Assembly (NCBI RefSeq): GCF_014696225.1
Contig: NZ_JACJPV010000013.1
Location: 1-64,000 of the forward strand
DNA: 64,000 nt
Reading direction: 5' to 3'
DNA from: Anabaena sp. FACHB-1237
GTDB lineage: Bacteria > Cyanobacteriota > Cyanobacteriia > Cyanobacteriales > Nostocaceae
Made by a program: the position numbers and the translations under genes. The notes under the pieces are model-generated. The model was not told the origin of the DNA. It saw only the letters and a program-made list of their open reading frames with translations, and did not search any database. This document shows positions 6,977-53,573 of this stretch, in pieces (within the stretch, counting starts at the first letter, position 1; the number at the start of each line of letters is the position of its first letter).

Positions 6977-7595
6977 TTATACCTCCGGGATATGTCCGGC
7001 TACTAATTACTAATTGGTGGATTTGCACAAAACAAAATGAAAATCCTAAATTATGAGTATAACTCCTTTTTGAGTTATTTTTCGGTAAACCGCCAAATTC
7101 CATCCCGGTGATCTGGTCTACCTTGTTCTAACAAATAATTAACTCTACTTAAATACAAATCTAGGTTTTTATCAGCATTATTAATTTATTAATATTTAAA
7201 AACTTTTATAAACACTTTTTCTCTTTTTTTACAGTGTCAGCACTTATGCAACTGGCACATTGGTAGGGTACATCAGACTGCATAAATCCTGCAAATAAAT
7301 TGATTCTTGATATGTGACACACCCCACAAGAGATTTTTAGTGTGACACTTGCGTAACTTCCTCACTCCTTGTAGGGGTTTATTATTGCTTAATGGTCTCA
7401 ACCTAACCCAAAATTGTTTTATTTGTTTGCTTCCACACCCACCCTGAAATGAATTTCAAGCCTAATAACCAAAGTAAACTTTAGTTTACTAGAAGAATTT
7501 TTGTTCATTAAGTCATCTTTAAATGACTTCCCAGTGCGGTTATGGGTTTTACGTTAAGTTGACACCAATGATTACCGTTAAACCCCTACTGACTC

Positions 7596-32113: not shown

Positions 32114-32219
32114 ATAAGCTAATGTGCAGCACTCACTGTATAATTAAAAAACCTGAAGTTACAGTAGCACAAGCATCTTGCTTGTATTAATTATTCAAGT
32201 TAAAAGCACAACAGCTTAA
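32114..32219. repeat. ~106-bp dispersed repeat, copy 1 (second copy 61383..61488, ~98% identical)
   Basis: ataagctaatgtgcagcactcactgtataattaaaaaacctgaagttacagtagcacaagcatcttgcttgtattaattattcaagttaaaagcacaacagctta. Contains the hairpin core gcaagcatcttgcttgc. Partial copies at 58263..58320, 51581..51615 and 2287..2310. Confidence 0.85.
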
Positions 32220-41201: not shown

Positions 41202-42590
41202 ATGATTAGTTTTGGTGATACTTTTGACAAAGTAAAAGAGTGTTTTACAGAAGCAAATATTGAATCAGGACTCAAACCAAAGTTAAAATCTGTAACCATA
41301 ATTCGTGATATTTATGGTAAAATTCGGCTGTTTCTTGAACCAAAGGAAAGTATTACAATTGATGCAGGAGAAACAGATAAATTAAAAAGACATTTACAAC
41401 AAAAATTAAGTTATTATTATGGTGAAGATATTTGGTTGGCACAAGGTGAAAAAGATGGTTACAAATCCTTAATTGATGCCATAAAAAATGAAAGAATAGC
41501 GGCTGAATGGGATGATAATAATATTGATTGGTATGTGCTAGAACGCCATCTTGCTAAACAGACATGGACTAATCAAAATTCAGGTAATCCACCTTGGGAA
41601 ATAAGATGGGTGGATACAGGAACAAAACCAGCAGTTGTCACTTTTTTCTCATTCAAAGGTGGTGTAGGTAGAACCACAGCATTAGTAGCTACAGCACTTA
41701 CTTTAGCTCGTAATGGACACCGAGTAGCTATAGTAGATTTAGATTTAGATTTAGAAGCTCCCGGGTTATCCAGTATCTTTTTTAAAGATACAGTAGAAAA
41801 CTTTGGTGTGATTGATTATTTATTAGAGAAAAAGATTCAAAATAGAAATTGGTCTTTAAGAAATGATATTTTAAGAATTAATGATCCCCTATTACTCGGA
41901 AATTCAGGAGGACAAATATATTTATTTACTGCGGGAAATGTAGATAATAATTACTTAGAAAAGTTAGCAAGGTTAGATTTTCAAAACTTAGTAGATCATC
42001 AACTTCCTGAAACCTTTAAGGGAATGTTGAAAGAACTAGAAAGTGCTGTTAAACCTCTTGATTTTATTCTCTTAGATTCTAGAGCAGGATTTCATGATAT
42101 TGGAGGATTAGCATTAACTGATTTATCTCACGCCGCAGTGATATTTGGTAGACAGTCTCGGCAAAGTTGGGCTGGTTTAACTTATGTTATTCGTCGTTTA
42201 TCTCAACCATTATTAGCAGAAAGGGAAAAATTCGCTGTAATATTAGTTCATGCTATGGCTCTTGCCAGTTTGGAAAGACGAAGGAATGAAGAATTAAGAG
42301 CATTTAAAGAACAGGCATATATAGCATTTCAAGAAAACTACTATTATGAAGGTGAAGTTGTACCTAATGCCGATGATATTAATGAACCTTTTTTACCTAT
42401 AATACTGCCTTTGAAAGATGAATTACAAGGAGATATTAGTTTATTTGTGCGTGATGAAAGTCAAGAAGAATCTGAACGGCTGAAACAGTTTGTATCTTTG
42501 ATGACTAATGAAGATTATCAAAAAATTGCTCAAAGGTTGTGTATAAGATTTAATAAGAGATTTAACAAAATAGAAGAGGAAGTAAGATGA
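41202..42590 (+). CDS. ParA/MinD-family P-loop ATPase homologue with N- and C-terminal extensions and a degenerate Walker A (KGGVGRTT)
   Basis: VVTFFSFKGGVGRTTALVATALTLARNGHRVAIVDLDLDLEAPGL is the ParA deviant Walker A with the P-loop Lys replaced by Arg. Walker B-like FILLDSRAG. Confidence 0.65.
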   Translation: MISFGDTFDKVKECFTEANIESGLKPKLKSVTIIRDIYGKIRLFLEPKESITIDAGETDKLKRHLQQKLSYYYGEDIWLAQGEKDGYKSLIDAIKNERIAAEWDDNNIDWYVLERHLAKQTWTNQNSGNPPWEIRWVDTGTKPAVVTFFSFKGGVGRTTALVATALTLARNGHRVAIVDLDLDLEAPGLSSIFFKDTVENFGVIDYLLEKKIQNRNWSLRNDILRINDPLLLGNSGGQIYLFTAGNVDNNYLEKLARLDFQNLVDHQLPETFKGMLKELESAVKPLDFILLDSRAGFHDIGGLALTDLSHAAVIFGRQSRQSWAGLTYVIRRLSQPLLAEREKFAVILVHAMALASLERRRNEELRAFKEQAYIAFQENYYYEGEVVPNADDINEPFLPIILPLKDELQGDISLFVRDESQEESERLKQFVSLMTNEDYQKIAQRLCIRFNKRFNKIEEEVR

Positions 42591-44101
42591 GTAATTCTGA
42601 TAAACAAAAACTACTAGAATTAATGGCTGGTATAGCACCACGAAACGCAACAGCAGAAAATGAAAGTAATGATCATGCCATTTTTCTCAAAAACTTTCTA
42701 CCTATTCCTAACTATCGCCAAGTTTTAGAAAGAGATACACTTTTAATATTAGGAGGAAAGGGGGTAGGTAAAACTGAACTATTTCGGTTATTAGCCATTC
42801 CTTCAGGACGAAAAATCCTGGTAGAAAACTTAAAAATTAGAGCATTAGAAGACTTAGACAAAACAACATGGATTGCTGGTTTTGGACGTACTCAACAGCA
42901 GGAAAAAACCTTTCCTACGCCAGAAACTATAGAAGCACAAATACACAATGGGAGTAATTTGGATTGGCGGATATTTTGGATTGGTTTAATGTTAGGAAGA
43001 ATTTTAAGCCAAGAACAAGAAATATTGAAAGGTGATTGGGTTGATGAGATACCTTTAGAAATTCGGGAATTATTAATCAATAAATTACCTCTATTATCTG
43101 CTTGGTTTCCTCTTGTATGTCAAAACATAGAGAAAATTAATTATGCTTTAGATTTGTTAGATCAAAAATTAATTGAATCAGATCAATGGTTATTTATCAC
43201 CTATGATGAACTAGATAGATTAGGATATTCATATCATCAATTAGCTACTCCTATACGTGAACTTTTAGCTTTTTGGTTAGATAGATGGCGACGTTGGGAA
43301 AGAATTAGACCTAAGATTTTTTTACGTACTGACCTTTTTCGAGAAGATTTTTTAAGTTTTCCTGATGCTTCTAAATTAAAAGCTTATCAAGTTAATTTGG
43401 AATGGAAAGATTCATGGTTATATCAACTACTATTCAAAAGATTAGCAAATTCTGGTCAAGAAATGGCTGAATATTTGCAGGATATATCACCGACATCACC
43501 AAATTTTCTCAAGGAAACTAACACACCTTTAGGAATAATTATCACTGCTAATGAAGTTTCTCATGAATTTGTGATCGGCAGAATAATTAATAGATTTATG
43601 GGTGATAATCCTAGAAAGGGATATACACATCTTTGGATTCCTAATAATCTTAAAGATGCTGGAGGTCGAATTTATCCCCGCGCATTTTTACAGCTATTTT
43701 CATTACCAGCACAAAGAAGAATAAATGAATCTGATATGCAAAATTTAACTGGAGATACTCTCCTCACTCCTGCTGATTTACAAAGCGCACTTGTGGATAT
43801 TTCTCAGTATAGAATTGGAGAATTAGTAGATGAATATCCTTGGTTAGAACCTCTCAAAAATAGCTTAAATGGTTTGAAAGTTCCTGTGGAAGAAGAAATT
43901 TTCCTCGATAAACTTAAAAATACAATGTGGAGTGAAGAATTAGGAAAACAACCTCCTGCTTCCAAACCAGAGGAAATTATGGGATATTTGCTACAACTGG
44001 GAATTATTGACAGGCGTTCTGATAAGCGTGTTAATATGCCTACAATTTATATGTATGGATTTGGGGTAAAACGTCCTGGTGGTGTAAAACGTCCAAAGTG
44101 A
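42587..44101 (+). CDS. P-loop NTPase of unknown family (Walker A GGKGVGKT, Walker B LFITYDE) with a ~200-aa C-terminal domain
   Basis: Start overlaps the upstream stop (ATGA) by 4 nt, indicating translational coupling. LLILGGKGVGKTELFRLL; WLFITYDELDRL. Confidence 0.6.
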   Translation: MSNSDKQKLLELMAGIAPRNATAENESNDHAIFLKNFLPIPNYRQVLERDTLLILGGKGVGKTELFRLLAIPSGRKILVENLKIRALEDLDKTTWIAGFGRTQQQEKTFPTPETIEAQIHNGSNLDWRIFWIGLMLGRILSQEQEILKGDWVDEIPLEIRELLINKLPLLSAWFPLVCQNIEKINYALDLLDQKLIESDQWLFITYDELDRLGYSYHQLATPIRELLAFWLDRWRRWERIRPKIFLRTDLFREDFLSFPDASKLKAYQVNLEWKDSWLYQLLFKRLANSGQEMAEYLQDISPTSPNFLKETNTPLGIIITANEVSHEFVIGRIINRFMGDNPRKGYTHLWIPNNLKDAGGRIYPRAFLQLFSLPAQRRINESDMQNLTGDTLLTPADLQSALVDISQYRIGELVDEYPWLEPLKNSLNGLKVPVEEEIFLDKLKNTMWSEELGKQPPASKPEEIMGYLLQLGIIDRRSDKRVNMPTIYMYGFGVKRPGGVKRPK

Positions 44102-44163: not shown

Positions 44164-45300
44164 ATGACAAGAAATGGTATCGGTATTCGTACAGCCCAAG
44201 CCCGTTCGGAACGCCTTACTGGTCAAATTCATGTTTATGATGGTATTGGTAAAGGTAAATCACAAGCGGCTTTAGGTGTGGTTTTACGTTCTATTGGTCT
44301 AGGTATAAACGCGGAAAATAATTTTCATCGAGTCTTATTATTACGTTTTTTAAAAGGACCAGAGCGAGATTATGATGAAGATGGAGCAATTACAGCGTTA
44401 CAAAAAGGGTTTCCCCATCTTATTGACCAGGTTCGTACAGGAAGGGCGGAATTTTTCGGACATGATGAAATTACCAGTTTTGATCGTGTGGAAGCTGCTA
44501 GGGGTTGGGATGTGGCTAAAGGAGCGATCGCTTCTGATTTATATTCTGTGGTAGTGTTGGATGAAATTAACCCGGTGTTAGATTTGGGGTTATTATCTGT
44601 GGCAGAAGTGGTTAAAACTCTGCAAAATAAACCCCAAGAATTAGAAATTATTTGTACAGGACGCGCTGCACCACAACAACTATTAGATATTGCGGATCTG
44701 CATTCAGAGATGAAACCGTTACATCATCCTACAGCAGATGAGTTGTTAATTGAAGGTATAGAAATTTATACAGGTGCAGGTAAAGGTAAATCTACTAGTG
44801 CTTTGGGAAAAGCATTACAGGCAATAGGTCGAGGTATTAATCACCCTGGATCTACCCGTGTATTAATTATGCAGTGGTTAAAAGGTGGTAGTGGATATAC
44901 TGAGGATGCAGCGATCGCCGCTTTACAACAATCCTATCCTGAAGTAGTAGATCATCAACGTTGTGGGCGTGATGCTATTGTTTGGCGTAATTCTAGACAA
45001 GATTTAGACTATTTAGAAGCTCAAAGAGGTTGGGAAATTGCCAAAACAGCGATCGCTTCTGGAGTGTATAAAACTATTATTCTGGATGAACTTAACCCTA
45101 CAGTTGATTTAGAATTATTACCTGTTGATCCCATTGTACAAGCATTACTACGGAAACCAAGAGACACAGAAATTGTTATTACTGGGCGCTGTCAACATCA
45201 ACCAGCTTATTTTGATTTAGCTAGTGTTCATTCGGAGGTATATTGTCATAAACATTACGCAAATCAAGGAGTAGAATTGAAGCGGGGCGTTGATTTTTAG
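44164..45300 (+). CDS. cobO: Tandem-duplicated CobA/CobO/BtuR-type ATP:cob(I)alamin adenosyltransferase
   Basis: Two repeats of the family. Repeat 1: IHVYDGIGKGKSQAALGVVLRSIGLG...VVVLDEINPVLDLGLL...ICTGRAAPQQLLDIADLHSEMKPLHHP. Repeat 2: IEIYTGAGKGKSTSALGKALQAIGRG...TIILDELNPTVDLELL...VITGRCQHQPAYFDLASVHSEV. Confidence 0.75.
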   Translation: MTRNGIGIRTAQARSERLTGQIHVYDGIGKGKSQAALGVVLRSIGLGINAENNFHRVLLLRFLKGPERDYDEDGAITALQKGFPHLIDQVRTGRAEFFGHDEITSFDRVEAARGWDVAKGAIASDLYSVVVLDEINPVLDLGLLSVAEVVKTLQNKPQELEIICTGRAAPQQLLDIADLHSEMKPLHHPTADELLIEGIEIYTGAGKGKSTSALGKALQAIGRGINHPGSTRVLIMQWLKGGSGYTEDAAIAALQQSYPEVVDHQRCGRDAIVWRNSRQDLDYLEAQRGWEIAKTAIASGVYKTIILDELNPTVDLELLPVDPIVQALLRKPRDTEIVITGRCQHQPAYFDLASVHSEVYCHKHYANQGVELKRGVDF

Positions 45301-45315
45301 AAATATTCAGATTCA

Positions 45316-45346
45316 GATCCCGGACTTCTTCAAGAAGTCCGGGATC
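45316..45346. repeat. 31-bp palindrome GATCCCGGACTTCTTCAAGAAGTCCGGGATC (same family as 30307)
   Basis: Seen directly, 16 bp after the cobO-like stop. Confidence 0.85.
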
Positions 45347-45478
45347 TAGTTTTTATTAATCGCCATTTTTATAAAGAGGAGAAACACCCACAGATACAAA
45401 CCAATCTGGTCTTTTATACCATCTGGGATGATGAGGATCATAATATAAATTCATATTTTAAAACAACCTCTGAAAAAT

Positions 45479-46633
45479 ATGTTTAATGTTACAAAAAAGA
45501 TAGTGTTTATTGGTGGTGGACACACTCATTCCATTGTATTAAATCTTTTAGGTAAATGTCCACTGTCAAAGGTAAGATTGATTTTAATTACTCCAGATAT
45601 ATATACTCCTTATTCAGGTATGTTACCCGGACATATTGCTGGTTTTTATAGTTATTCTCAGTGCCATATTAATTTACAATATTTAAGCAATTTTGCTGGT
45701 TCTGAGTTGTATCTTGATTCTGTGGTAGGTTTGGATTTAAAAAATAATTATGTGCTTTGTGCTAATAAAGAACCTGTAAGTTTTGATGTTCTTTCTATTG
45801 ATATTGGTAGTGTTCCTCAACAATTATCTGTATTGGTTGGTTCCGAATATACTATTGGTGTAAAACCTGTGAGTCGTTTTTTAAAATGTTGGTATAATTT
45901 ACAAGAAAATATCTGGAATAATTCTGGTAAGTCTTTTAGTATCGCTGTGGTTGGTGGTGGTGCTGGCGGTGTGGAATTGGTATTATCCATGATCAGAGGT
46001 TTACAAGGAGAAAGTTGTTTAAAATTGCCAAATGTGGAGTTTCATTTATTTCACAGTGGTATAAGTTTAATGCCAAATTACTATTATTTGGTTGGTGAAT
46101 TTATACAGGATCTTCTCCTCAGTAAAGGTGTGAATTTACATCTAAAGGAAAGGGTATGTGAGGTAATAAAAATTATAGATGATAGGTTAAATGTTAAATG
46201 TGAATCTGGTTTGATCCTAAGTTGTGATTATGTGTTTTTGGTAACTCAACCATCAGCAGCAAGTTGGGTTAAAGATTCGGGAATTGCTACGAATGATGAT
46301 GGTTTTATTTTGGTAAACAATGCTTTACAATCAGTCTCTCATCACCATATTTTCGCTGCGGGTGATATTGCTACTATGATTAATTATAATTTACCGAAAT
46401 CAGGTGTATTTGCGGTACGTCAAAGTAAAACTTTATATGATAATTTACGCAGAATAATGGATGATCAACCTTTAAAATCTTATAAACCACAAAGTAGTTA
46501 TTTGAGTTTAATCGGTACAGGAGATGGTAAGGCCATAGCTACTAAAGGTAATTTCACTTTGCCTCCTCATAAGTTATTATGGTGTTGGAAAGATTTTATT
46601 GATCGTCGTTTTATGGAACAATTTCCACAGTAA
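45479..46633 (+). CDS. FAD-dependent pyridine-nucleotide-disulfide-type oxidoreductase
   Basis: N-terminal Rossmann KIVFIGGGHTHS. Second dinucleotide fold SIAVVGGGAGGVE. C-terminal IFAAGDIAT motif. Confidence 0.65.
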   Translation: MFNVTKKIVFIGGGHTHSIVLNLLGKCPLSKVRLILITPDIYTPYSGMLPGHIAGFYSYSQCHINLQYLSNFAGSELYLDSVVGLDLKNNYVLCANKEPVSFDVLSIDIGSVPQQLSVLVGSEYTIGVKPVSRFLKCWYNLQENIWNNSGKSFSIAVVGGGAGGVELVLSMIRGLQGESCLKLPNVEFHLFHSGISLMPNYYYLVGEFIQDLLLSKGVNLHLKERVCEVIKIIDDRLNVKCESGLILSCDYVFLVTQPSAASWVKDSGIATNDDGFILVNNALQSVSHHHIFAAGDIATMINYNLPKSGVFAVRQSKTLYDNLRRIMDDQPLKSYKPQSSYLSLIGTGDGKAIATKGNFTLPPHKLLWCWKDFIDRRFMEQFPQ

Positions 46634-46700
46634 GGTTATTGACTTATTTAAGAAGTCGAGAATTGCAATTTTATGAAAACATTAACAGAGGTTTACAAAT

Positions 46701-47321
46701 ATGAATCAACGATTAAATGAGGAAGAACTAAATCAAATTATTTATGAGGTTCAATCTTTACAATTACGTCAAGAATCAGAATTGAATAAACAGCAGGTTC
46801 AACAAATTTTACAAGAGTTAAATTTGCCTCCTGAATTATTAGATGAAGCGTTAATTCAATTACGTCGTCGTCAAGCATTACAAGTTGAAAAAAGTCGCAA
46901 TAAGTTAATTATTGCTAGTATGGTTGCTGGTGTAATTATTTCTTTAGGAGGATGGTTATTTGTCTCTCAAAAAGAAAGTTCTTTATTAGCTAATGTTAGT
47001 TCTCAAGCTGATAGAATTACTTTATCTTCCAATAATAGTAATATCACCAATATTTCTCGTCAATCTAATTCAGAAGTTTTCTATCGTGTGACTTTAAAAG
47101 ATGCACCCATAGGTAAAAAGTTGTCTCTTTCTTGTAATTGGATTGATCCTACTGGTACTATTGTCAAACAAAATAAATACATAACTAAAGAAGTCGCAAC
47201 TTCTATATTCGATACTCATTGTCGTTATACTATTAATCCTAGTGCTAAAGTTGGTAATTGGCAAGTACAAATGTTACTTGATGGTCGAAAAATTAGCGAT
47301 GAAATTTTTAGTGTTGAGTAG
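46701..47321 (+). CDS. Hypothetical single-pass membrane protein with an N-terminal coiled-coil
   Basis: Coiled-coil/Gln-rich N-terminus, one TM (LIIASMVAGVIISLGGWLFV), beta-rich C-terminus. Confidence 0.4.
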   Translation: MNQRLNEEELNQIIYEVQSLQLRQESELNKQQVQQILQELNLPPELLDEALIQLRRRQALQVEKSRNKLIIASMVAGVIISLGGWLFVSQKESSLLANVSSQADRITLSSNNSNITNISRQSNSEVFYRVTLKDAPIGKKLSLSCNWIDPTGTIVKQNKYITKEVATSIFDTHCRYTINPSAKVGNWQVQMLLDGRKISDEIFSVE

Positions 47322-47329
47322 TTTTTGAT

Positions 47330-49060
47330 ATGTCTGTTTATCATTTTATCGGTTATTGGGGTGATGGTTGTGAAGATATTTTGCAGAAAATTATCACGCA
47401 AAGTCGCAAAGTCGCAAAGGTAGAAAGTGGTTCTTGTAATGTTCTTTATGTTGGTTGTGAATGTTTACCAATTTTAGCTAAAAATACATCTACAAATATT
47501 ATTGGTGGTATTTCTGCTGGAGGATTTTCTGGTGATCCTGATGTTTGGATAAAGCTAAGAGAAAATAAGTTGATTTTAGGAAGGGAAATTTTTGGTAAAG
47601 TTCCTTTATTTTGGATGAAAGTAGATCAGGTAATTTGGTTTTCTTCTCAATTACAATTGCTTTTACAAGTGATGGAAAAACCCGAAGTTAGTATTTCTGG
47701 TTTATATGGTTATAGTTGTTTTTCTTATGTTCCTACTCCTTTAACTGCCGTTAATCAGATTTTCTCTGTACCTGCGGGAGTTGAAATGATCTGGGATAAT
47801 ATTAATAATTATAAGTTACATTATCTTGATCAATGGTATGAGTCTCAGGAACAAGTTAAAGATGAAAAAGTCGCTGTTTCTCAATTACAAACTTTACTCA
47901 AAGATGCTGTTGAAAAACAAATTTCTGATATTAATAATGAACCAGTGGGAGTTTTCCTTTCTGGAGGTTTAGATTCTTCTATTGTTGCTGCTTTGTTAGT
48001 AAAAGCTGGTGTAAAAGTTCGTGCTTATAGTTTAGATTTTGGTAAGTTTGGTATTTCTGAGTTTTCTTATGCAGAAAAAGTGGCAAATTTTTTAAATATT
48101 CCTCTTGTAAAAGTTGATGCAAGTCCTGATAAAATAAAAAAGTATTTAGTTCCTACTGTTCAAGCATTAGATTTACCTTTTGGTGATGGTGTTACTGTTC
48201 CTTTGTATCTTCTTAATAAAGCTGCTTCTCAAGAAACAAATATCATTTTTAATGGTGAAGGTGGTGATCAATTATTTGCAGGTTGGACTAATAAACCTTT
48301 AATTGCTGCTGGTATTTATCAATCACAAAATCCTCAAAAACAAGAGGGTTTTATGCAACAATATCTCCGTACTTTTCACCGTTTATGGGGCTATGAAAAT
48401 AGGGTTTATCTACCACAAATATATGCACAGATTCAAGGTTTAAATGCTGAAGAATGGCTCGTTAATGCATTGGATATCAGTTTTGCTTCTTCATTATTAC
48501 ATCGTCTGAGAAGGGCAAATTTAATGTTAAAAGGATCACAAAACATTCATCCTCGTGCGTCTGCTTTGGGTTTTGTTCATGGGTTAAATGTGCGATCGCT
48601 CTTTTGTGATTTAAACTTAGCAAAATGGACTTTTCAACTATCAGGAGAACTCTATTTACAAGGTGCTTGTGAAAAGTATATCCTTAAACGTGCAGTGCAA
48701 GATTTATTACCATCCGATATTGTTTGGAGACAAAAACGCGGTATGGGTGTTCCTTTAACCTCGTGGTGTTTTCATGATTTATGGCATAATATCGGTAATT
48801 GGTTAAATCCGGGTATAATCGCAGCAGAAAATATTTTTTACCCTGATATTGCTACACAAATCATTACGGGACAATTAGGAGGTAATATTCAAGGAAGACG
48901 CATTGGTGAGATACTTTGGTTACTGATTATGTGGGAACTTTGGTATAATCACGTTTTTGGAAGAAAAGTAGGTAAAATCTCTTTTAATCATTCTTTTGTA
49001 CTCCCTAGTTGGTTATGGAAACAATACAAAAAAATCCAGCAACAATTCCCAGTTTATTAA
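47330..49060 (+). CDS. Asparagine-synthetase-B-like ATP-dependent amidotransferase lacking the N-terminal Cys nucleophile (beta-lactam-synthetase/lasso-cyclase-like)
   Basis: PP-loop VGVFLSGGLDSSIVAAL. N-terminal domain retains the AsnB Ntn fold (GGISAGGFSGDPDVWIKLRENKLILGREIFGKVPLFW) but begins MSVYHF with no Cys2. An in-frame stop lies directly upstream. Confidence 0.75.
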   Translation: MSVYHFIGYWGDGCEDILQKIITQSRKVAKVESGSCNVLYVGCECLPILAKNTSTNIIGGISAGGFSGDPDVWIKLRENKLILGREIFGKVPLFWMKVDQVIWFSSQLQLLLQVMEKPEVSISGLYGYSCFSYVPTPLTAVNQIFSVPAGVEMIWDNINNYKLHYLDQWYESQEQVKDEKVAVSQLQTLLKDAVEKQISDINNEPVGVFLSGGLDSSIVAALLVKAGVKVRAYSLDFGKFGISEFSYAEKVANFLNIPLVKVDASPDKIKKYLVPTVQALDLPFGDGVTVPLYLLNKAASQETNIIFNGEGGDQLFAGWTNKPLIAAGIYQSQNPQKQEGFMQQYLRTFHRLWGYENRVYLPQIYAQIQGLNAEEWLVNALDISFASSLLHRLRRANLMLKGSQNIHPRASALGFVHGLNVRSLFCDLNLAKWTFQLSGELYLQGACEKYILKRAVQDLLPSDIVWRQKRGMGVPLTSWCFHDLWHNIGNWLNPGIIAAENIFYPDIATQIITGQLGGNIQGRRIGEILWLLIMWELWYNHVFGRKVGKISFNHSFVLPSWLWKQYKKIQQQFPVY

Positions 49061-50256
49061 CTCCTTTTTCTTTAGAAGTTGCTGAGGAGTTATTACAAGT
49101 TTACGGTTTTCCTCTCTATGTTTATGATAGTAATATTCTGAAAAACACTATTTCTCATATTACTAATTCTATTAATTATCCTAGAACTAAATTTTACTTT
49201 GCCAGTGTCACTAATGGTAATATCTCATTATTGAAATTCTTTAAAGATGCTGGTTGGGGACTTCATGCTAATACCCCAGGTGATGTTTTTTTAGGTTTAA
49301 AATCAGGGTTTTATCCTAGTGAAATTGTTTATAGTGGTAGTAACTTAAATCAAGAGGATATTTCACAACTTTTAGATTGGGGTATTACTACGTTTAATCT
49401 GGATAGTATTAGTCAGTTACAGTTATTTTCTCAGGTTTTGTTATCTCACCCACAGACGCAGAGTCACAGAGAGAATTTAGGAGAAAATTTAAGAATCGGG
49501 TTACGTTTGAATGTTTCTCAAGATAGTCGTATAGGGGTTAGTATAAAGGATTTTCAGGAAGCAATAGATATTGCTAGTTTAGCAGGTTTGAAAATTACAG
49601 GTTTACATTTTTATCGCGGTACGGGAACTAATGCGACGGCCGCTTTTACTAATGTTATTGATCAGGTAATATCCATAGCAGAAAATTTACCACATTGGCA
49701 ATATTTAGATTTTGGTGGTGGTTTTGGTTATCCATATCATCGTGATCAAATATCTTTTAATTGGCATATTTTTGGAGATGAATTAACCGCAAGACTGAAT
49801 AAATTACCAATAAATGTAGATTTAATTATTGAACCTGGACGTGCTGCTGTTGCTGGTTGTGGTACTCTTTTAGTACAGGTTGTATCTATAAAATGGCAAG
49901 GTGATAAACAAATTGTCGGAGTTAATTCTACTGTTGCAAATATTTCTGTTCCTGCTGTACATGGAGGTTATCGAGAAGTTGTCACTTGGAAAAATTCCAC
50001 ATCGGAAACATACCTCACGGATGTTTGTGGAAATACTACTTATTCCAGAGATTATTTAGCTAAAAATTACCAACTTCCTGCTTTACAAATTGGTGATATT
50101 ATTGCTATTTTAGATGTTGGTGCTTATGGTTATGCTATGTCTTCTCATTTTCTACATCGTCCTAAACCTGCGGAAATACTCCTAGAAAATGGTTCACATC
50201 GCTTAATTAGAAAACGTGAAAATTACAATGTTTTACTTAACAATCAGATTGTATAA
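49009..50256 (+). CDS. Diaminopimelate/ornithine-decarboxylase-like (fold-type III PLP) protein, apparently lacking the Schiff-base lysine
   Basis: FPLYVYDSNIL...KFYFASVTNGN aligns to LysA PVWVYD...FAQKACSN with the PLP Lys replaced by Val. C-terminal EPGRA and GAYGY motifs present. Overlaps the upstream gene by 52 nt. Confidence 0.65.
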   Translation: MVMETIQKNPATIPSLLTPFSLEVAEELLQVYGFPLYVYDSNILKNTISHITNSINYPRTKFYFASVTNGNISLLKFFKDAGWGLHANTPGDVFLGLKSGFYPSEIVYSGSNLNQEDISQLLDWGITTFNLDSISQLQLFSQVLLSHPQTQSHRENLGENLRIGLRLNVSQDSRIGVSIKDFQEAIDIASLAGLKITGLHFYRGTGTNATAAFTNVIDQVISIAENLPHWQYLDFGGGFGYPYHRDQISFNWHIFGDELTARLNKLPINVDLIIEPGRAAVAGCGTLLVQVVSIKWQGDKQIVGVNSTVANISVPAVHGGYREVVTWKNSTSETYLTDVCGNTTYSRDYLAKNYQLPALQIGDIIAILDVGAYGYAMSSHFLHRPKPAEILLENGSHRLIRKRENYNVLLNNQIV

Positions 50257-50271
50257 TATCAGGATAAAATT

Positions 50272-51576
50272 ATGAAATGTATTAATTGTGGAACTGACAA
50301 CAATTTAAAAGACAGAAGGGGAAATCAAGGAAGATGTAAACAGTGTAATCATCGTTTTGCTTTTGAACCCACAGCTATGGGAAATGTGAAGGTTACAGAT
50401 CCTATGTTTGCTAAAATATTAGCTGATATTTCCGCTAATAATACTTTATATTTTACACCTAAACAACTTCTATATTTTCTGGATAATCGTATCCGACGTA
50501 AAGCATCTTCAGTCGTTGGAAATATCTTTTCATATATATTTTTGAATGTTTGGGTAACGGTTTTTTTTGGAGGATTTACTCGTGGATTTTTACCTAATTC
50601 TTTTCTAATTTGTAATTTAATTTATCAGGTAATCACAATTATTGGTTTATATCAACAAACTAAATCTCCTCAACTAAATTATGCAGGACGTAAAGCTAGT
50701 GCAAAATCTTTGAAAATTGTTGGTATTCTGATTTTATCAGTGGGAACTTTGATTACTTTTCTACTAAAATCTCCACCAATTATGATTGCTGTAATAATTT
50801 TAGGAGGTTCAGCACTACTTCTCAGTCAGCAAAAATTTGCTCCTGCTACAAGTATTCAAGATTTTATAATTTCTCAATCATCTTTAAAAAGTTGGTTAAC
50901 AAGATGGCAAGACATTAATGGTACAATTGATAAAGTTCTTCCTTCTGTACAACAGGTTATTTCAGAAAGTAATTCAATATCTATTAATCCTGAAGTTACA
51001 GCTTATAGTTTTGATAGATTGGTAGTGTGTGATAGTGCTAATATTGCACAATTATTAATTGCTAATAATTTCCATTTTGAAAATAACTGTGCAATTTTGA
51101 GTATTACTGGTTATCCTCAAAGTATTTTTACAACAACTATGGAAATGGTGAGACGTAACCCAGATTTACAAGTCTTTGCTTTACATGATTGTAGTGCTAA
51201 AGGTGTTAGTTTAGTCCATCATCTTCGTAGTAGTGAAAATTGGTTTTTTAATAGCAATGTGAAAATTATTGATGTAGGTTTATTACCTCGTCAAATTCTA
51301 GCTAATAAACGGGGAATGTTTATTCAAAATAATACTGCTTTATGCCAAAAATCTCAAGATTTACCCATAGAAGTTCGCCAAAATTTGTCTAAGGAAGAGT
51401 TAAAATGGTTAGATGCTGGAAATTTTGTGGAATTAGAGTCTTTTACCCCGCAAATGTTAATTAAAGTCCTCAGAAATGGTATTTCTGGTAGTCTTAATTT
51501 AGCAAGTGATGATAGTAGTATGATTTTTATTGGTGATTCTAGTAGTGATATTTATGTTGTGGAAAGTTTTGGTTAA
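50272..51576 (+). CDS. Zinc-ribbon-containing polytopic membrane protein, hypothetical
   Basis: N-terminal CxxC...CxxC (MKCINCGTD...RCKQCNH), 3-4 TM helices, then a ~230-aa soluble C-terminal domain. Confidence 0.5.
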   Translation: MKCINCGTDNNLKDRRGNQGRCKQCNHRFAFEPTAMGNVKVTDPMFAKILADISANNTLYFTPKQLLYFLDNRIRRKASSVVGNIFSYIFLNVWVTVFFGGFTRGFLPNSFLICNLIYQVITIIGLYQQTKSPQLNYAGRKASAKSLKIVGILILSVGTLITFLLKSPPIMIAVIILGGSALLLSQQKFAPATSIQDFIISQSSLKSWLTRWQDINGTIDKVLPSVQQVISESNSISINPEVTAYSFDRLVVCDSANIAQLLIANNFHFENNCAILSITGYPQSIFTTTMEMVRRNPDLQVFALHDCSAKGVSLVHHLRSSENWFFNSNVKIIDVGLLPRQILANKRGMFIQNNTALCQKSQDLPIEVRQNLSKEELKWLDAGNFVELESFTPQMLIKVLRNGISGSLNLASDDSSMIFIGDSSSDIYVVESFG

Positions 51577-51635
51577 TGTGTTAATGTAGTGCAAGCATCT
51601 TGCTTGCATCCTTAATTATTCAATTGCTTAATTAC

Positions 51636-51903
51636 TCTAGGACTTACGCAAGTGTCACACTAAAAAATCTGTTGAGTGGGTGCGTCAGATATCAACAATT
51701 TGGTGATTTATATCATGTCCGCCCAATCACTTACGATATAGTTCATCATTGTATTGCCTTTTCCCAATTACCAATTACCCATTACCAGCCTCAACAGATA
51801 TGATAAGTGTTCAACCGGACATGATATTACATGATTTACACTGTCTGACGTGGTTGGTGAGCTTGTCGAACCACACCCTACCAATGTACCAGTTGCGTAA
51901 GTC
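51636..51903. mobile_element. Composite/nested MITE-like non-autonomous element (outer TIR GGACTTACGCAAG, inner TIR GGGTGCGTCAGA, ~95-bp internal module shared with 61267..61362)
   Basis: Outer ends: ctaggacttacgcaagtgtcacact ... agttgcgtaagtcc. Inner ends: gggtgcgtcagat ... ctgtctgacg. No ORF of transposase size inside. Confidence 0.7.
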
Positions 51904-51925
51904 CTGTGTTCAATTGCTGAATTAT

Positions 51926-52612
51926 TCAATTGTCAATTTCTTCAGGAATGTAATTCTTAATCACTCTACCCGCACCTCGCAATTGTTTATAATAATTTTG
52001 ACTAATTTGATCTCCATCAGCAGAAAGTTGATCTATTCCTATGCCATTTCTACCCTGATCTTTTCCTGAACTATGAATATAAAAATTATTACCTAAATAT
52101 AATCCCACATGGGTGGCTTTTTCAGGAGTACCAAAAAAAATTAAATCTCCTGGTTGTATTTCATTAATATCTATAGGTTGAGTAAATCCTTCCTGTTGAT
52201 AAGCGTCTCTAGGTATCCAAATATTTACAGAAATAAATGCAGCTTGCATTAATCCAGAACAATCATAATTAGGTGCTACTGTGCCTCCCCAAAGATAATA
52301 ATTTGGCTGTTGTTTTGCTTTTTGGATAAATTTAATTACTTCTGGTATTTTTGCTTGTACTTCTGCTGTGGTAAATGTCTGTGGTTTATAAGCTGATTTA
52401 GCTTGTGTAATTAGGTGTAAATCATTGATAGATAACCATCCTGGATAGTTGTCTTCTCTGAGATAGATTTTAATGGCGCTATTTTCATGGTTTGATGTCA
52501 TTTGTAAGTATCTTCCTCTAGCGGCTTGGGTAGCTAAACGGTTACACTGAGGAGAATCATATAGGTTTAAATTGGCTAAACATTGATAGATGGTAGTTTT
52601 ACTGTGAGTCAT
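51926..52612 (-). CDS. NlpC/P60-family (C40) cell-wall peptidase
   Basis: Catalytic Cys region YDCSGLMQAAF. His region ATHVGLYLGNNFYIHSS. N-terminal SH3b-like part. Confidence 0.8.
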   Translation of the reverse strand: MTHSKTTIYQCLANLNLYDSPQCNRLATQAARGRYLQMTSNHENSAIKIYLREDNYPGWLSINDLHLITQAKSAYKPQTFTTAEVQAKIPEVIKFIQKAKQQPNYYLWGGTVAPNYDCSGLMQAAFISVNIWIPRDAYQQEGFTQPIDINEIQPGDLIFFGTPEKATHVGLYLGNNFYIHSSGKDQGRNGIGIDQLSADGDQISQNYYKQLRGAGRVIKNYIPEEIDN

Positions 52613-52622
52613 TTTTTTAAGG

Positions 52623-53573
52623 ATGTTGATAGAAATGGTATTTTTTAAGGAAGATCAAGAATTGGCAAGTATCGGTAATGATATTTTACAAATTACTTGG
52701 CGAGAATTTCCTAGTTTGACAGATACCCAAATTGCGCTCACGTGGGTTGTTTATGATCCACCTGTGCCTGTTAATACTGGTGGTGCTTTAACTCCTAATG
52801 CGTTTTGGGATCATGGGGTACGGGGTTTTAGTTATCGTGGAAGTGAGAGAATTTACCCTGCTAGTGTGGTGAAGTTATTCTATTTGGTAGCTGCACAGGA
52901 ATGGTTAGAAAAGGGGATGAGTTCTGGTTCTGAGGAGTTGGATCGGGCTTTACATGATATGATTGTGGATTCTAGTAATGATGCTACTAGTTTAGTGGTG
53001 GATATTTTGACGGGTACAACTTCTGGACCTGAGTTAACCGCAGGACCTTTTGAAACTTGGAAGTATCAACGTCAAATTATTAATCGTTATTATCAGTCTT
53101 TGGGATGGAATGAGTTACAGGAAATTAATGTTTGTCAGAAAACTTGGGGAGATGGTCCTTATGGCCGGGAAAGACGGTTTTATGGTGATATGTTTGAAAA
53201 TCGTAATATGTTAACTACTGATGCTACTGCGCGGTTGTTACATAGTATTGTGGGTGGTATTGCGGTTTCTAGTGAGCGATCGCAAGCCATGATGGAACTA
53301 CTCAAACGTAGTCTCAAAGGCGTTGATTTGCCCCAGGATGGCGAGGAAAATCAACTTACAGGGTTTTTTGGTGGTGGACTGCCAGATACGGCACAAATAT
53401 GGTCTAAGGCAGGCTGGACAAGTTCAGTACGTCATGATGCGGCTTATATTGAGTTAGTGGATCAACGTCCTTATCTGTTGGTAGTTTTTACAGAGGGTAA
53501 GAAGCAAGCGGGAAATAAAGAAATTTTACCTTTTATATCTCGTTTATTTGCAAATGCGATTAGTAAGTTGTAG
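52623..53573 (+). CDS. Class-A beta-lactamase-related serine hydrolase family protein
   Basis: SxxK motif in YPASVVKLFYL, SDN-like region DSSNDAT, KAGWT (KTG-like) motif. Confidence 0.65.
   Translation: MLIEMVFFKEDQELASIGNDILQITWREFPSLTDTQIALTWVVYDPPVPVNTGGALTPNAFWDHGVRGFSYRGSERIYPASVVKLFYLVAAQEWLEKGMSSGSEELDRALHDMIVDSSNDATSLVVDILTGTTSGPELTAGPFETWKYQRQIINRYYQSLGWNELQEINVCQKTWGDGPYGRERRFYGDMFENRNMLTTDATARLLHSIVGGIAVSSERSQAMMELLKRSLKGVDLPQDGEENQLTGFFGGGLPDTAQIWSKAGWTSSVRHDAAYIELVDQRPYLLVVFTEGKKQAGNKEILPFISRLFANAISKL

Follow-up and report, generated by a model that had tools for sequence, protein, structure and literature searches.

Organisation and distribution of the locus

The window analysed here is a stretch of 64,000 nucleotides from Anabaena sp. 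FACHB-1237. It contains five consecutive open reading frames on the same strand (Table 1), which the initial annotation had read as an operon bounded by a palindrome and a MITE. The palindrome is present; it is a perfect repeat of 16+16 nt followed by a T tract, resembles a terminator hairpin after cobO, and in this strain marks the upstream limit of the run of same-strand genes, outside the conserved unit. The five-gene grouping was correct as to strand but not as to membership. Neither the FAD oxidoreductase nor cobO is a neighbour in any of 80 related loci, in which the other four genes stay together, and the oxidoreductase was therefore rejected as a cassette member and is treated as an unrelated neighbour. 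The conserved unit is thus a four-gene cassette (46701-51576) encoding, in order, p206, a Cys-less AsnB-like enzyme (AsnBL), a Lys-less diaminopimelate (DAP) decarboxylase-like protein (LysAL) and p434, a zinc-ribbon protein with four membrane helices. The LysAL gene overlaps that of AsnBL by 46 nt if it begins at ATG 49015. The 52 nt given previously applies to a TTG start at 49009, and it is the ATG that yields 413 residues, matching in length the database protein P0001, which is 100% identical. Repeats in the spacer downstream of p434 have copies at 61263-61372 (96%), 56980-57052 (90%), 7303-7356 and elsewhere, and are compatible with the label "MITE-like". Just downstream of the cassette in this window are genes for an NlpC/P60 peptidase and a class-A beta-lactamase-family protein, neither of which is a conserved neighbour (0 of 80 loci).

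Table 1. Coordinates of features at the locus
Feature	Position	Strand	Basis or remark
Terminator-like perfect palindrome 3' of cobO	45315..45347	+	15-16 bp stem, 8 GC pairs, T-rich tail
FAD/pyridine-nucleotide-disulfide oxidoreductase, TIGR03169 ("Nterm_to_SelD")	45479..46633	+	418.9 bits vs cut-off 310
p206, predicted single-pass membrane protein	46701..47321	+	alignment; in 77/82 loci
AsnBL, AsnB-family PP-loop enzyme without N-terminal Cys	47330..49060	+	
LysAL, DAP-decarboxylase-like fold-type III protein without Schiff-base Lys	49015..50256	+	
p434	50272..51576	+	
p434 C-terminal tail (ASDDSSMIFIGDSSSDIYVVESFG)	51502..51573	+	pLDDT below 50
Spacer containing short dispersed repeats (MITE-like) and inverted repeats	51577..51925		
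Terminator-like hairpin after p434, downstream boundary	51589..51609	+	

A genome scan found a relative in the genomes of about 420 species, identity declining as taxonomic distance grows; the best 80 loci from these genomes are all cyanobacterial and represent several orders. Among 82 loci, AsnBL is encoded in 81, LysAL in 79, p206 in 77 and p434 in 76, with constant gene order and strand, so that the AsnB-like/LysA-like pair recurs and is accompanied, as had been proposed, by two membrane proteins. In the window and in loci L001, L003, L169 and L170 the two enzyme genes either overlap or adjoin each other. The cassette is also found in Aerosakkonema and on a megaplasmid of the unicellular Gloeothece, where a single fragment annotated as a PEP-CTERM sorting domain is located upstream. 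Iningainema has the cassette without LysAL, and in Symploca AsnBL is followed by neither LysAL nor p434. The cassette occurs once per locus, with p434 duplicated in a few, and its contexts are varied and not island-like. In Limnoraphis, glycosyltransferase genes lie upstream.

Residue states of AsnBL and LysAL

AsnBL matches Asn_synthase (PF00733, E 2.7e-54) and, like both the Cys-less amide synthetases of the AsnB family and the AsnB-like enzymes TsrC, ScdTA and PesC (peptide C-terminal amidases and a nitrile synthetase), is a two-domain AsnB with a PP-loop ATP site (SGGLDSS, 47960-47980). Its N-terminus, MSVYHF, has no Cys, as the initial annotation observed, and this is a property of the whole family, which begins ..YHFIGYWGYG and in no member of which is the Cys nucleophile found. 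The glutaminase Cys is likewise absent from beta-lactam synthetase, CarA and the lasso cyclases. Of its two domains, the N-terminal one (residues 1-185) is degenerate, and conservation is high in the synthetase domain (186-539). E310, D313 and K469, equivalent to E348, D351 and K449 of E. coli AsnB, are invariant together with the PP-loop, as are the ATP, Mg and phosphate ligands, and the catalytic Glu and Asp fall within an invariant stretch of 20 residues. In contrast, the Glu-Tyr pair of E. coli AsnB (E352/Y357) is replaced by Gln-Trp (Q314/W319). Mutation of the equivalent Tyr in PesC abolishes activity (PMC13060819), and the catalytic competence of AsnBL is therefore not assured. AsnBL falls under every curated AsnB-family cut-off, scoring 175.5 bits against the AsnB model (cut-off 267.1) and 56 against the lasso cyclase model (cut-off 525). 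CarA is a weak PDB match, and a weak QueC match (E 1.6e-6) is confined to the PP-loop region. The cassette lacks the precursor peptide, B-protein/RRE and clavam or carbapenem partner genes of those systems; AsnBL is instead linked to LysAL and the two membrane proteins.

LysAL is a full-length fold-type III protein (187 bits against Aquifex LysA, 2p3e; 238 against the LysA model, below its cut-off of 297.9). When it is aligned with three solved DAP decarboxylases, its FASVTNGN falls on (Y/F)AVKAN with no gap nearby and places Val opposite the Schiff-base Lys, as had been suspected; this residue, Val65 (codon 49207-49209), occurs in all 81 cyanobacterial members of the family. The stacking His, second in HxHxGS, is Tyr, and Thr-Tyr stands in place of Cys-Glu in the CES motif. 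DAP-binding residues have changed at three positions. The substrate-binding R, Y and H are V, H and R; among the residues for the distal end of DAP, R312 is Val, Y316 is His and E343 is Tyr. Each of the replacements V65, Y200, T203, T342, Y343 and R320 is found in 79-81 of the 81 members. LysAL keeps the ligands of the PLP phosphate and pyridine, with the GGG phosphate loop, EPGR and GAY shared with LysA, and the GGG loop, E273, R276, Y371 and D346 are invariant (n=81). By these residue patterns the pocket appears to be under selection. The original label "degenerate" misleads, since the replacement residues are invariant and so is the PLP-phosphate/pyridine pocket.

BtrK, SbnH and FslC are DAP-decarboxylase-like enzymes that act on the products of ligases and are paired with an ATP-dependent ligase, and LysAL resembles them in having such a partner. 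For the wider Lys-less clade to which it belongs, neither a dedicated NCBIfam model nor a solved structure was found. Outside the cyanobacteria, its Lys-less relatives are encoded beside thioesterase, PCP, AMP-ligase, sulfotransferase and B12-rSAM genes, and some beside P5CR-like reductases. Some relatives occur as fusions with spermidine synthase or a methyltransferase, which suggests that the clade is enzymatically active on small amino compounds.

An AsnB-family and a DAP-decarboxylase-family gene also share a locus in exosortase A (PEP-CTERM) systems (TIGR03108/TIGR03099), a context that the initial annotation had named as one that would contradict its reading. The cassette proteins score far under the cut-offs of these models (164 vs 817 and 101 vs 478 bits, the first alignment starting at profile position 131 and so not covering the N-terminal Cys region), and neither exosortase-type EPS genes nor the exosortase, acyl-CoA ligase, ACP and hydrolase partners are among the recurrent flanking families of the 82 loci.

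The membrane proteins and a second AsnB paralogue

p206 comprises an N-terminal helical domain (residues 1-70), one transmembrane helix and, at the C-terminus, a domain resembling a beta-sandwich, in which two cysteines, C145 and C174, are invariant; weak matches to MG2, DUF3859 and GBD were obtained for 8-12 of 14 members. p434 begins with a zinc ribbon (C3, C6, C22 and C25, within residues 1-34), followed by a small helical domain and four high-confidence transmembrane helices (about 81-185). Fold comparison identifies residues of about 245-410 as a Toprim domain of the Topo VI-A/Spo11/MksG (JetD) type, with matches to Topo VI-A, Spo11, the Wadjet-type nuclease MksG, RecR and primases. The domain retains the first Asp of DxD and the P-x-G behind it, but the cyanobacterial proteins have lost two of three metal ligands (Cys replaces the beta-1 Glu, and DxD reads DxS). 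Unlike its structural relatives, p434 has no 5Y-CAP/winged-helix domain, and its Toprim domain sits behind the zinc ribbon and membrane helices and carries a tail. This tail is variable, acidic and disordered and ends in ESFG in the window; the terminal FG is found in 75/76 and 118/120 sequences, divergent paralogues included, and is missing from P0463 and P0524, two divergent homologues with a double module.

A second Cys-less AsnB paralogue, AsnB2 (175 bits against the lasso-cyclase model), adjoins the cassette in 38 of 82 loci and is absent from all 64 kb of this window. Among plasmid records its close relatives are found only in Gloeothece and Streptomyces, in both cases adjoining p434-like genes. 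The Streptomyces order is three tandem zinc-ribbon/TM/Toprim-like ORFs, a TM protein and the AsnB2-like gene. None of the three ORFs ends in FG, whereas the TM protein has an acidic tail that ends in DDDFG. DxD is retained in two of the Streptomyces p434 homologues.

Possible function of the cassette

From the gene content and synteny, residue states, Toprim fold and tail invariance observed here, we infer a membrane topology, a physical association of the four proteins, a reaction and a substrate. In the reading that we prefer, with low confidence and a probability of roughly one in three, the cassette would encode a membrane-anchored, glutamine-independent, ATP-dependent carboxylate-activating (amide-bond-forming) complex that acts on a tethered carboxylate. 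AsnBL, with its intact PP-loop and Mg/phosphate site, would adenylate the carboxylate and couple it to an amine not derived from glutamine. LysAL would be a repurposed partner with a PLP-type pocket, not a LysA-type decarboxylase, and would most likely bind or present the amino-group partner or carry out non-canonical PLP chemistry. p206 and p434 would anchor the soluble enzymes to the membrane on its cytoplasmic side. A tethered substrate, protein or membrane-bound, is considered likelier than a diffusible metabolite; the preferred candidate is the disordered acidic p434 tail with its almost invariant FG carboxylate. There is precedent in TsrC, ScdTA and PesC, AsnB-like enzymes that work on peptide C-terminal carboxylates (PMC13060819), and in PP-loop QueC-family enzymes that modify unstructured protein termini with a Gly motif (PMC13279940). 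In these QueC-family systems, Cap9 of type IV CBASS and QatC-QatB, a PP-loop ATPase is paired with a partner whose flexible terminal tail bears an essential terminal-Gly motif (PMC13279940), an arrangement resembling the cassette. The tail in those systems is N-terminal and not C-terminal, AsnBL belongs to the AsnB and not the QueC PP-loop family, and the cassette has no TGT-like, ATPase or nuclease partners. This model leaves the zinc ribbon and Toprim domain, a usual sign of nucleic-acid work, unexplained and gives no role to the p206 domain predicted to face outward. The Gln-Trp pair of AsnBL, the p434 homologues without FG, the lack of AsnB2 in this window and the incomplete gene sets of Iningainema and Symploca also count against it.

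One alternative, suggested originally with the tabtoxin pairing of TabA and TblS as an analogy, is a small-molecule pathway. AsnBL would form an intra- or intermolecular amide (lactam or beta-lactam-type), LysAL would make or hold an amino-acid-derived substrate, and export or sensing of the product would fall to the membrane proteins. Beta-lactam and carbapenam synthetases are Cys-less AsnB homologues, CarA is among the weak matches, both pockets are invariant, and the Lys-less relatives outside cyanobacteria occur in metabolic or BGC-like contexts and in enzyme fusions. However, the likeness to CarA does not extend beyond the PP-loop region, the DAP-binding positions are replaced, p206 and p434 lack transporter features and the latter has a Toprim fold, and context lends no support: none of the 82 loci has a conserved tailoring, transporter, regulator or resistance gene beside the cassette, and the wide distribution, with identity following taxonomic distance, is unlike most specialised-metabolite clusters. 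We consider such a pathway rather unlikely. Less probable is that the pair amidates or decorates a carboxylate of a peptidoglycan precursor (meso-DAP, D-Glu) or polysaccharide, with LysAL as a DAP-recognising subunit and the membrane proteins coupling the reaction to lipid-linked precursors. In some Gram-positive bacteria meso-DAP is amidated by AsnB-family enzymes (AsnB1/LtsA), LysAL derives from a DAP-binding enzyme, and the predicted extracytoplasmic domain of p206 carries a conserved Cys pair. The envelope-related neighbours in this window and the Limnoraphis glycosyltransferases would also fit; the former recur in 0/80 loci, Mur, flippase and polysaccharide genes do not recur among the flanks of the 82 loci, the residues for the distal end of DAP are replaced, and the exosortase-associated scores are low.

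In a further alternative, p434 would bind DNA or RNA at the membrane, and the PP-loop and PLP-fold proteins would modify a nucleobase or serve as sensor or effector in the manner of QueC-containing defence systems. The Toprim matches, the zinc ribbon, the DxD of two Streptomyces homologues, the plasmid-borne Gloeothece cassette and the expansion of p434 paralogues argue for this, as does the action of PP-loop enzymes in defence (PMC13279940). However, the cyanobacterial Toprim domain lacks two of its three metal ligands, there is no winged-helix/5Y-CAP domain with a catalytic Tyr, there is no phage match, the cassette lies once per locus outside defence islands, and PADLOC returned nothing significant for p206 (marginal, E 0.062), LysAL or p434 and only a weak QueC PP-loop match for AsnBL (E 2.8e-6). 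This role is improbable, and equally so is a non-catalytic complex in which both "enzymes" are pseudoenzymes serving as ligand sensors or scaffolds; they might, for example, sense an amino acid or ATP and control transmembrane signalling by p206 and p434. The missing Cys1 and E352/Y357 of AsnBL, the missing Lys, Cys and second His of LysAL, the signal-transducer-like architecture of p206 and the precedent of pseudoenzyme partners without the PLP lysine in other families (PMC11726168, PMC10211241) are consistent with such a complex. Against it stand the invariant ATP, Mg and phosphate ligands and catalytic stretch of AsnBL, the Lys-less relatives in enzyme-only operons and fusions, and the lack of an output domain (kinase, cyclase or DNA-binding HTH).

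AsnBL and LysAL are a real, selected gene pair, overlapping or abutting in many genomes. Judged from their sequences, both appear to be repurposed rather than decaying, because the substituted active-site residues are themselves invariant. The cassette, of which no description was found in the literature searched, is uncharacterised and stays intact across hundreds of species of cyanobacteria, and the Streptomyces locus is a cross-phylum link between the AsnB2 type and the zinc-ribbon/Toprim architecture.

The conserved unit and its neighbourhood

The initial annotation described the five same-strand ORFs of this region, among them one for an FAD oxidoreductase, as one operon of apparently degenerate enzymes. 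The same-strand run is real, but as a conserved unit it shrinks to four genes, to which we refer as the cassette: p206 and p434, encoding membrane proteins, AsnBL, encoding an AsnB-like PP-loop protein, and LysAL, encoding a protein resembling diaminopimelate (DAP) decarboxylase. With the AsnBL alignment as query, a scan covering a single genome for each species recovered 420 genomes that encode a relative, and the best 80 loci were all cyanobacterial, mainly from Nostocales, with Limnoraphis, one Leptolyngbyaceae and one Xenococcaceae genome also represented. When the cassette genes were counted in 82 loci by tblastn and all-against-all clustering of ORFs, AsnBL was present in 81, LysAL in 79, p206 in 77 and p434 in 76. 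Gene order and strand are constant across loci and the absences fall mostly at contig ends. The cassette is also found in Aerosakkonema, and all four genes are carried by a 474-kb megaplasmid of the unicellular Gloeothece verrucosa PCC 7822. Iningainema has a cassette without LysAL, and in Symploca the gene after AsnBL encodes a 2-hydroxyacid dehydrogenase. AsnBL and LysAL overlap or abut in several loci: the overlap is 46 nt in the window, 43 nt in L001 and 13 nt in each of L003 and L169, and in L170, the Gloeothece locus, the genes are adjacent.

Neither the oxidoreductase, in contrast to its proposed place in the block, nor cobO was found in any of the 80 related loci; synteny (0 of 80) likewise removed the NlpC/P60 peptidase and the beta-lactamase-family protein from consideration as cassette members. 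In the window a strong terminator-like palindrome precedes the oxidoreductase gene and a weaker hairpin follows p434. No terminator-like structure was seen between these two, so that in Anabaena sp. FACHB-1237 the oxidoreductase may be co-transcribed with the cassette. Upstream of p206, a search of 77 loci for NtcA, LexA-like, HLR1 and DIF1 patterns and for shared k-mers detected no conserved regulatory motif beyond close relatives. In one metagenome-assembled genome (L014) the heptamer GGCAGGA forms a long tandem array some 170 nt upstream of the p206 homologue.

Several other features of these neighbourhoods are included in the table below. A copy of the Sll1717-family gene also lies upstream of the cassette in one related locus, L047. 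The short repeats that follow p434 recur elsewhere in the window and, judged by sequence, resemble the MITE-type or short dispersed repeats of cyanobacteria. A 543-aa metagenomic protein, P0254, joins in frame the first ~375 residues of AsnBL to the last ~170 of LysAL. With about 120 aa missing from one protein and about 240 aa from the other, it was rejected as a functional fusion of the two and probably reflects a deletion or an artefact of assembly.

Coordinates of the cassette, its neighbours and related features (positions are those of the window unless a locus or record is named)
Feature	Location	Strand	Remarks
P-loop ATPase, Sll1717 family	42587-44101	+	NF047389, 104.6 bits (cut-off 75)
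Double-domain cob(I)yrinic acid a,c-diamide adenosyltransferase	44164-45300	+	378 aa; two CobA/CobO/BtuR domains; NF005647, 727 bits
Five-ORF same-strand run	45479-51576	+	ORF call
FAD oxidoreductase	45479-46633	+	384 aa; pyridine-nucleotide-disulfide oxidoreductase family TIGR03169, 418.9 bits (cut-off 310)
p206	46701-47321	+	206 aa; no family above threshold
AsnBL	47330-49060	+	576 aa; Asn_synthase PF00733, E 2.7e-54
LysAL	49009/49015-50256	+	413-415 aa; both Orn/DAP/Arg decarboxylase domains
p434	50272-51576	+	434 aa; no family above threshold
Short dispersed repeats	51577-51925; copies 61263-61372, 56980-57052, 7238-7356, 58259-58288, 32158-32198		82-97% identity
NlpC/P60 peptidase with SH3 domain	51926-52612	-	divergent from the beta-lactamase-family gene
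Class-A beta-lactamase-family protein	52623-53573	+	
AsnB2	L001 14487-16217; L038 12922-14649; L074 11548-13287; L170 10356-12056	-	
Toprim membrane protein, tandem-duplicated	L001 11320-13993; L038 9992-12916; L169 11248-13693		
"PEP-CTERM sorting domain-containing protein" CDS	Gloeothece plasmid NC_014534.1 (L170) 5003-5131		42 aa; ~100 nt upstream of cassette
Protelomerase gene	linear Gloeothece plasmid NC_014534.1 (L170) 13720-15081		3.4 kb downstream of cassette
Streptomyces sp. NBC_01237 locus L171	NZ_CP108509.1 6378-13485		no annotation for this stretch in the record

Active sites of AsnBL and LysAL

In glutamine-hydrolysing AsnB an N-terminal Cys (Met-Cys-Gly...) serves as the nucleophile of an Ntn glutaminase domain. 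The absence of this residue from AsnBL, reported from the window sequence, was borne out by alignment: the protein begins MSVYHF, and Cys occurs in none of 14 diverse relatives with identities of 58-90%. In the same alignment a conserved N-terminus (..YHFIGYWGYG) is followed by a variable insert and then by a very strongly conserved synthetase domain, and of the glutaminase domain a family scan recognised no more than 37 residues, as a GATase_7 remnant. The PP-loop is retained as SGGLDSS (SGGxDS). Profile alignment with E. coli AsnB (1ct9) places the family-invariant E310, D313 and K469 opposite E348, D351 and K449, and shows the Glu-Tyr pair E352/Y357 replaced by Q314/W319, both of them invariant. 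AsnBL thus lacks the pair that is present in E. coli AsnB and, as E363/Y368, in PesC. On these alignments the ATP site looks intact and the chemistry around the carboxylate changed. An equivalent Glu-Tyr pair is reported to be important in an AsnB-like peptide nitrile synthetase, in which replacement of Tyr by Phe left no activity (preprint, PMC13060819). Against the AsnB model TIGR01536, AsnBL scores 175.5 bits, below the curated cut-off of 267.1.

LysAL, which is 100% identical to P0001 of Anabaena sp. FACHB-1237, has lysA (TIGR01048) as its best model, with 238.3 bits and a cut-off of 297.9. The initial annotation stated that its Schiff-base lysine is missing, and this survived closer alignment. 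FASVTNGN lies opposite (Y/F)AVKAN, with Val at the Lys position in all 81 cyanobacterial members of the window protein's branch, on which all residue counts for this family are based; pairwise HMMER alignments with three DAP decarboxylases of solved structure (2p3e, 3n2b and 2yxx) contain no gap near the site. Other elements of the pocket have changed as uniformly. Tyr takes the place of the second His of HxHxGS in 81 of 81 (the window motif reads H-F-Y-R-G-T), Cys and Glu of the CES motif have become Thr (81/81) and Tyr (79/81) to give T-Y-S, and three DAP-binding positions are Val, His and Arg, with R/Y replaced by V312/H316. No variation occurs at the positions that bind the PLP phosphate and pyridine nitrogen, which are the GGG loop, Glu and Arg of EPGR, Tyr of GAY and Asp346. 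No compensating lysine was seen elsewhere in the protein, the only invariant ones being K298 and K293, the latter also present in true DAP decarboxylases. Since the pocket in its new state is under purifying selection, "repurposed" is a better term than "degenerate". LysAL may serve as an amine-presenting subunit, a non-canonical PLP enzyme or a sensor.

The window protein belongs to a wider group. From a search of 1.84 billion proteins we took the best 150 representatives and aligned the 122 full-length sequences among them; Lys is absent from 34 of these, including the window protein and three close relatives, and the Tyr and Thr substitutions are common to all 34. The cyanobacterial branch has additional substitutions at the DAP-binding positions. 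We also observed that the clade (P0245-P0385; L004, L086, L088-L091, L094) is broad and non-cyanobacterial, with the motifs FA.M.N, H.Y.GTN and GNT..S.D. In four contigs non-cyanobacterial members adjoin P5CR-like reductases, and others lie in clusters resembling biosynthetic gene clusters, with B12-radical-SAM, AMP-ligase, carrier-protein and sulfotransferase genes. Natural fusions join the Lys-less domain to a spermidine synthase (P0331) and to a SAM-type methyltransferase (P0272), hinting that some members may work on SAM-related or polyamine substrates. Together, these gene contexts and fusions suggest that the clade consists of working enzymes with non-canonical chemistry. The hit lists contained no dedicated NCBIfam model for it, and two members, with 324.8 and 298.2 bits, exceed the NCBIfam LysA cut-off of 297.9 and would be misnamed LysA. 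When metagenomes were scanned with Lys-less sequences, most of the genes recovered were true LysA; of 80 loci, only 9 clearly lacked the Lys, and in one further locus the site was not covered.

Two membrane proteins and a second Cys-less synthetase

p206 consists of a conserved helical N-terminal domain, a single transmembrane (TM) segment and a C-terminal domain in which two cysteines are invariant. Beta-sandwich families matched this last domain weakly but repeatedly (MG2 in 12 of 14 members, DUF3859 in 10 of 14). p434 begins with a CxxC...CxxC zinc ribbon and a small conserved helical domain, followed by a variable region, in which AlphaFold2 predicts four confident TM helices, and a highly conserved C-terminal domain. 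All 24 p434 members examined match the Topo VI-A/Spo11 Toprim model, with a best E of 7.5e-8. The full-length AlphaFold2 model was poor (pLDDT 57) and gave no PDB match by Foldseek, and the C-terminal domain was therefore modelled alone. Its fold matches were Topo VI-A 1d3y_B (score 12.4, 158 residues aligned), 2zbk_A (11.3) and 2q2e_A (10.7), Spo11 8uru_A (9.5) and the Wadjet-type nuclease MksG 8b7f_B (9.1), with the Toprims of RecR, topoisomerase I and primase lower. Foldseek against viral structures returned no significant match. Based on this model, the assignment of a Toprim fold of the Topo VI-A type is solid. The metal triad of Topo VI-A and Spo11, a Glu plus DxD, is not kept: tDgDPyG aligns to HDCSPKG, so that DxD reads DxS (D-C-S), and by inspection only the beta-1 Glu position is occupied by the invariant Cys253. 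Nor does p434 possess the 5Y-CAP/winged-helix domain with the catalytic Tyr, its N-terminal part being the zinc ribbon and the four TM helices. In some genomes the Toprim membrane protein is duplicated in tandem (loci in the table).

The last ~25 residues of p434 are modelled as disordered and are acidic and variable, except for their end. FG forms the C-terminus of 75 of 76 sequences taken from the loci and of 118 of 120 database homologues, and the same ending is found in divergent paralogues (SSDTFG, VDNFG) and in the Gloeothece protein (VQSFG). Two Microcoleus-type double-module proteins (P0463 and P0524, fusions of ~810 aa) do not end in FG.

In 38 of 82 loci the cassette is accompanied by a convergent gene, usually just downstream of p434, for a second Cys-less AsnB paralogue of ~576 aa, AsnB2. 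These loci belong to Nostocales, Limnoraphis, Leptolyngbyaceae and Gloeothece; AsnB2 is absent from the 64-kb window. It is ~29% identical to AsnBL and has a recognisable glutaminase-domain remnant without the N-terminal Cys. In 72,556 plasmid records, close relatives of AsnB2 were confined to Gloeothece (58% identity) and a 1.6-Mb Streptomyces replicon (40%, E 1e-113), the next matches being generic AsnB genes at 26%. In Streptomyces, three ORFs of the zinc-ribbon/TM/Toprim-like type, two of which keep the DxD, lie in tandem upstream of the AsnB2-like gene. Between these and the AsnB2-like gene lies a 179-aa TM protein, whose acidic, Gly-rich tail ends DDDFG. The frames have GC3 values of 0.89-0.93, as expected for real Streptomyces genes. 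An aldehyde dehydrogenase gene adjoins the AsnB2-like gene on the downstream side of the array. This locus, the one non-cyanobacterial example, shows that p434-type proteins, AsnB2-type enzymes and FG tails are associated outside cyanobacteria too.

A proposed membrane-anchored amide-forming complex and its rivals

We consider, with a probability of roughly one in three, that the cassette encodes a complex, anchored in the membrane, that forms amides with ATP and without glutamine. Four rivals are left: a pathway to a small molecule, modification of the envelope, a role in nucleic-acid work or defence, and a regulatory complex without catalysis. The initial annotation suggested a small-molecule or cell-envelope modification pathway, possibly a lactam-forming one, and AsnBL does share with beta-lactam and carbapenam synthetases an AsnB fold without Cys and an intact adenylation site. 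These synthetases use a Tyr-Glu catalytic dyad. The carbapenam synthetase CarA (1q15) matches AsnBL only over residues 204-326 around the PP-loop, with E from 1.6e-5 to 7e-8, and the dyad region is unaligned. The recurrent neighbours in 82 loci include no CEAS, clavaminate synthase, CarB/CarC or equivalents, and there are no conserved tailoring, export or resistance genes; two membrane proteins without transporter features are always present. These observations, together with the wide and apparently vertical conservation of the cassette, fit the amide-forming complex better than a diffusible beta-lactam pathway. The lasso-peptide cyclase model NF033535 gives 56 bits with AsnBL and 175 with AsnB2 at a cut-off of 525; leader peptidase/RRE or precursor-peptide genes were not among the recurrent partners in the 82 loci.

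Embedding in a known exopolysaccharide or exosortase locus had been raised as a way to overturn the proposal of a new pathway, and no such recurrent context was found in the 82 loci; the exosortase A-associated models TIGR03108 and TIGR03099 give scores far below their cut-offs (164 vs 817 and 101 vs 478 bits). The Toprim fold of p434, which lacks the metal triad, would speak for work on nucleic acids or for defence. When the four proteins were scanned with PADLOC, nothing emerged beyond a weak QueC PP-loop hit for AsnBL and a marginal match for p206 (E 0.062), and tblastn of phage records found no match. A regulatory complex without catalysis would accommodate the lost catalytic residues.

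Returning to the amide-forming complex, the identity of its substrate can be approached from precedent. AsnB-like enzymes act on peptide carboxylates, C-termini included (PMC13060819), and QueC-family PP-loop enzymes modify flexible protein termini that bear a Gly motif (PMC13279940). With these precedents, and with an FG carboxylate lying beside Cys-less AsnB homologues in two phyla, we infer that the invariant FG carboxylate on the disordered tail of p434 is the preferred candidate for a substrate or docking element. The more specific idea that the cassette and AsnB2 form a protein-terminus modification system, a C-terminal counterpart of N-terminal conjugation by the QueC family that is housekeeping in cyanobacteria and reduced in Streptomyces, is speculative and on balance improbable. 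In this reading the AsnB-type PP-loop enzymes would adenylate the terminal carboxylate of the tail and join it to an amine that the Lys-less PLP-fold protein supplies or keeps bound.

Full-text literature searches found no description of the cassette or of Lys-less DAP-decarboxylase-like proteins, and the source databases name the genes generically ("asparagine synthetase B family", "decarboxylase", "hypothetical"). Each component belongs to a known superfamily and fails the tested defining features of its characterised families. The cassette may be one more version of the AsnB-type systems that form amides, and there is a modest chance that it is something more unusual.

As a whole, these results identify a cassette kept by hundreds of cyanobacterial species, including the bloom-forming Dolichospermum, Aphanizomenon and Raphidiopsis and symbiotic Nostoc. 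They expose a large Lys-less branch of the DAP decarboxylase family, some members of which pass the LysA naming threshold, and illustrate that the loss of textbook catalytic residues can signal a repurposed rather than a dead protein. They also connect, in two phyla, AsnB-type enzymes with a membrane protein whose fold is of the topoisomerase type. The modification of the p434 tail, if true, would be a new kind of protein conjugation chemistry.
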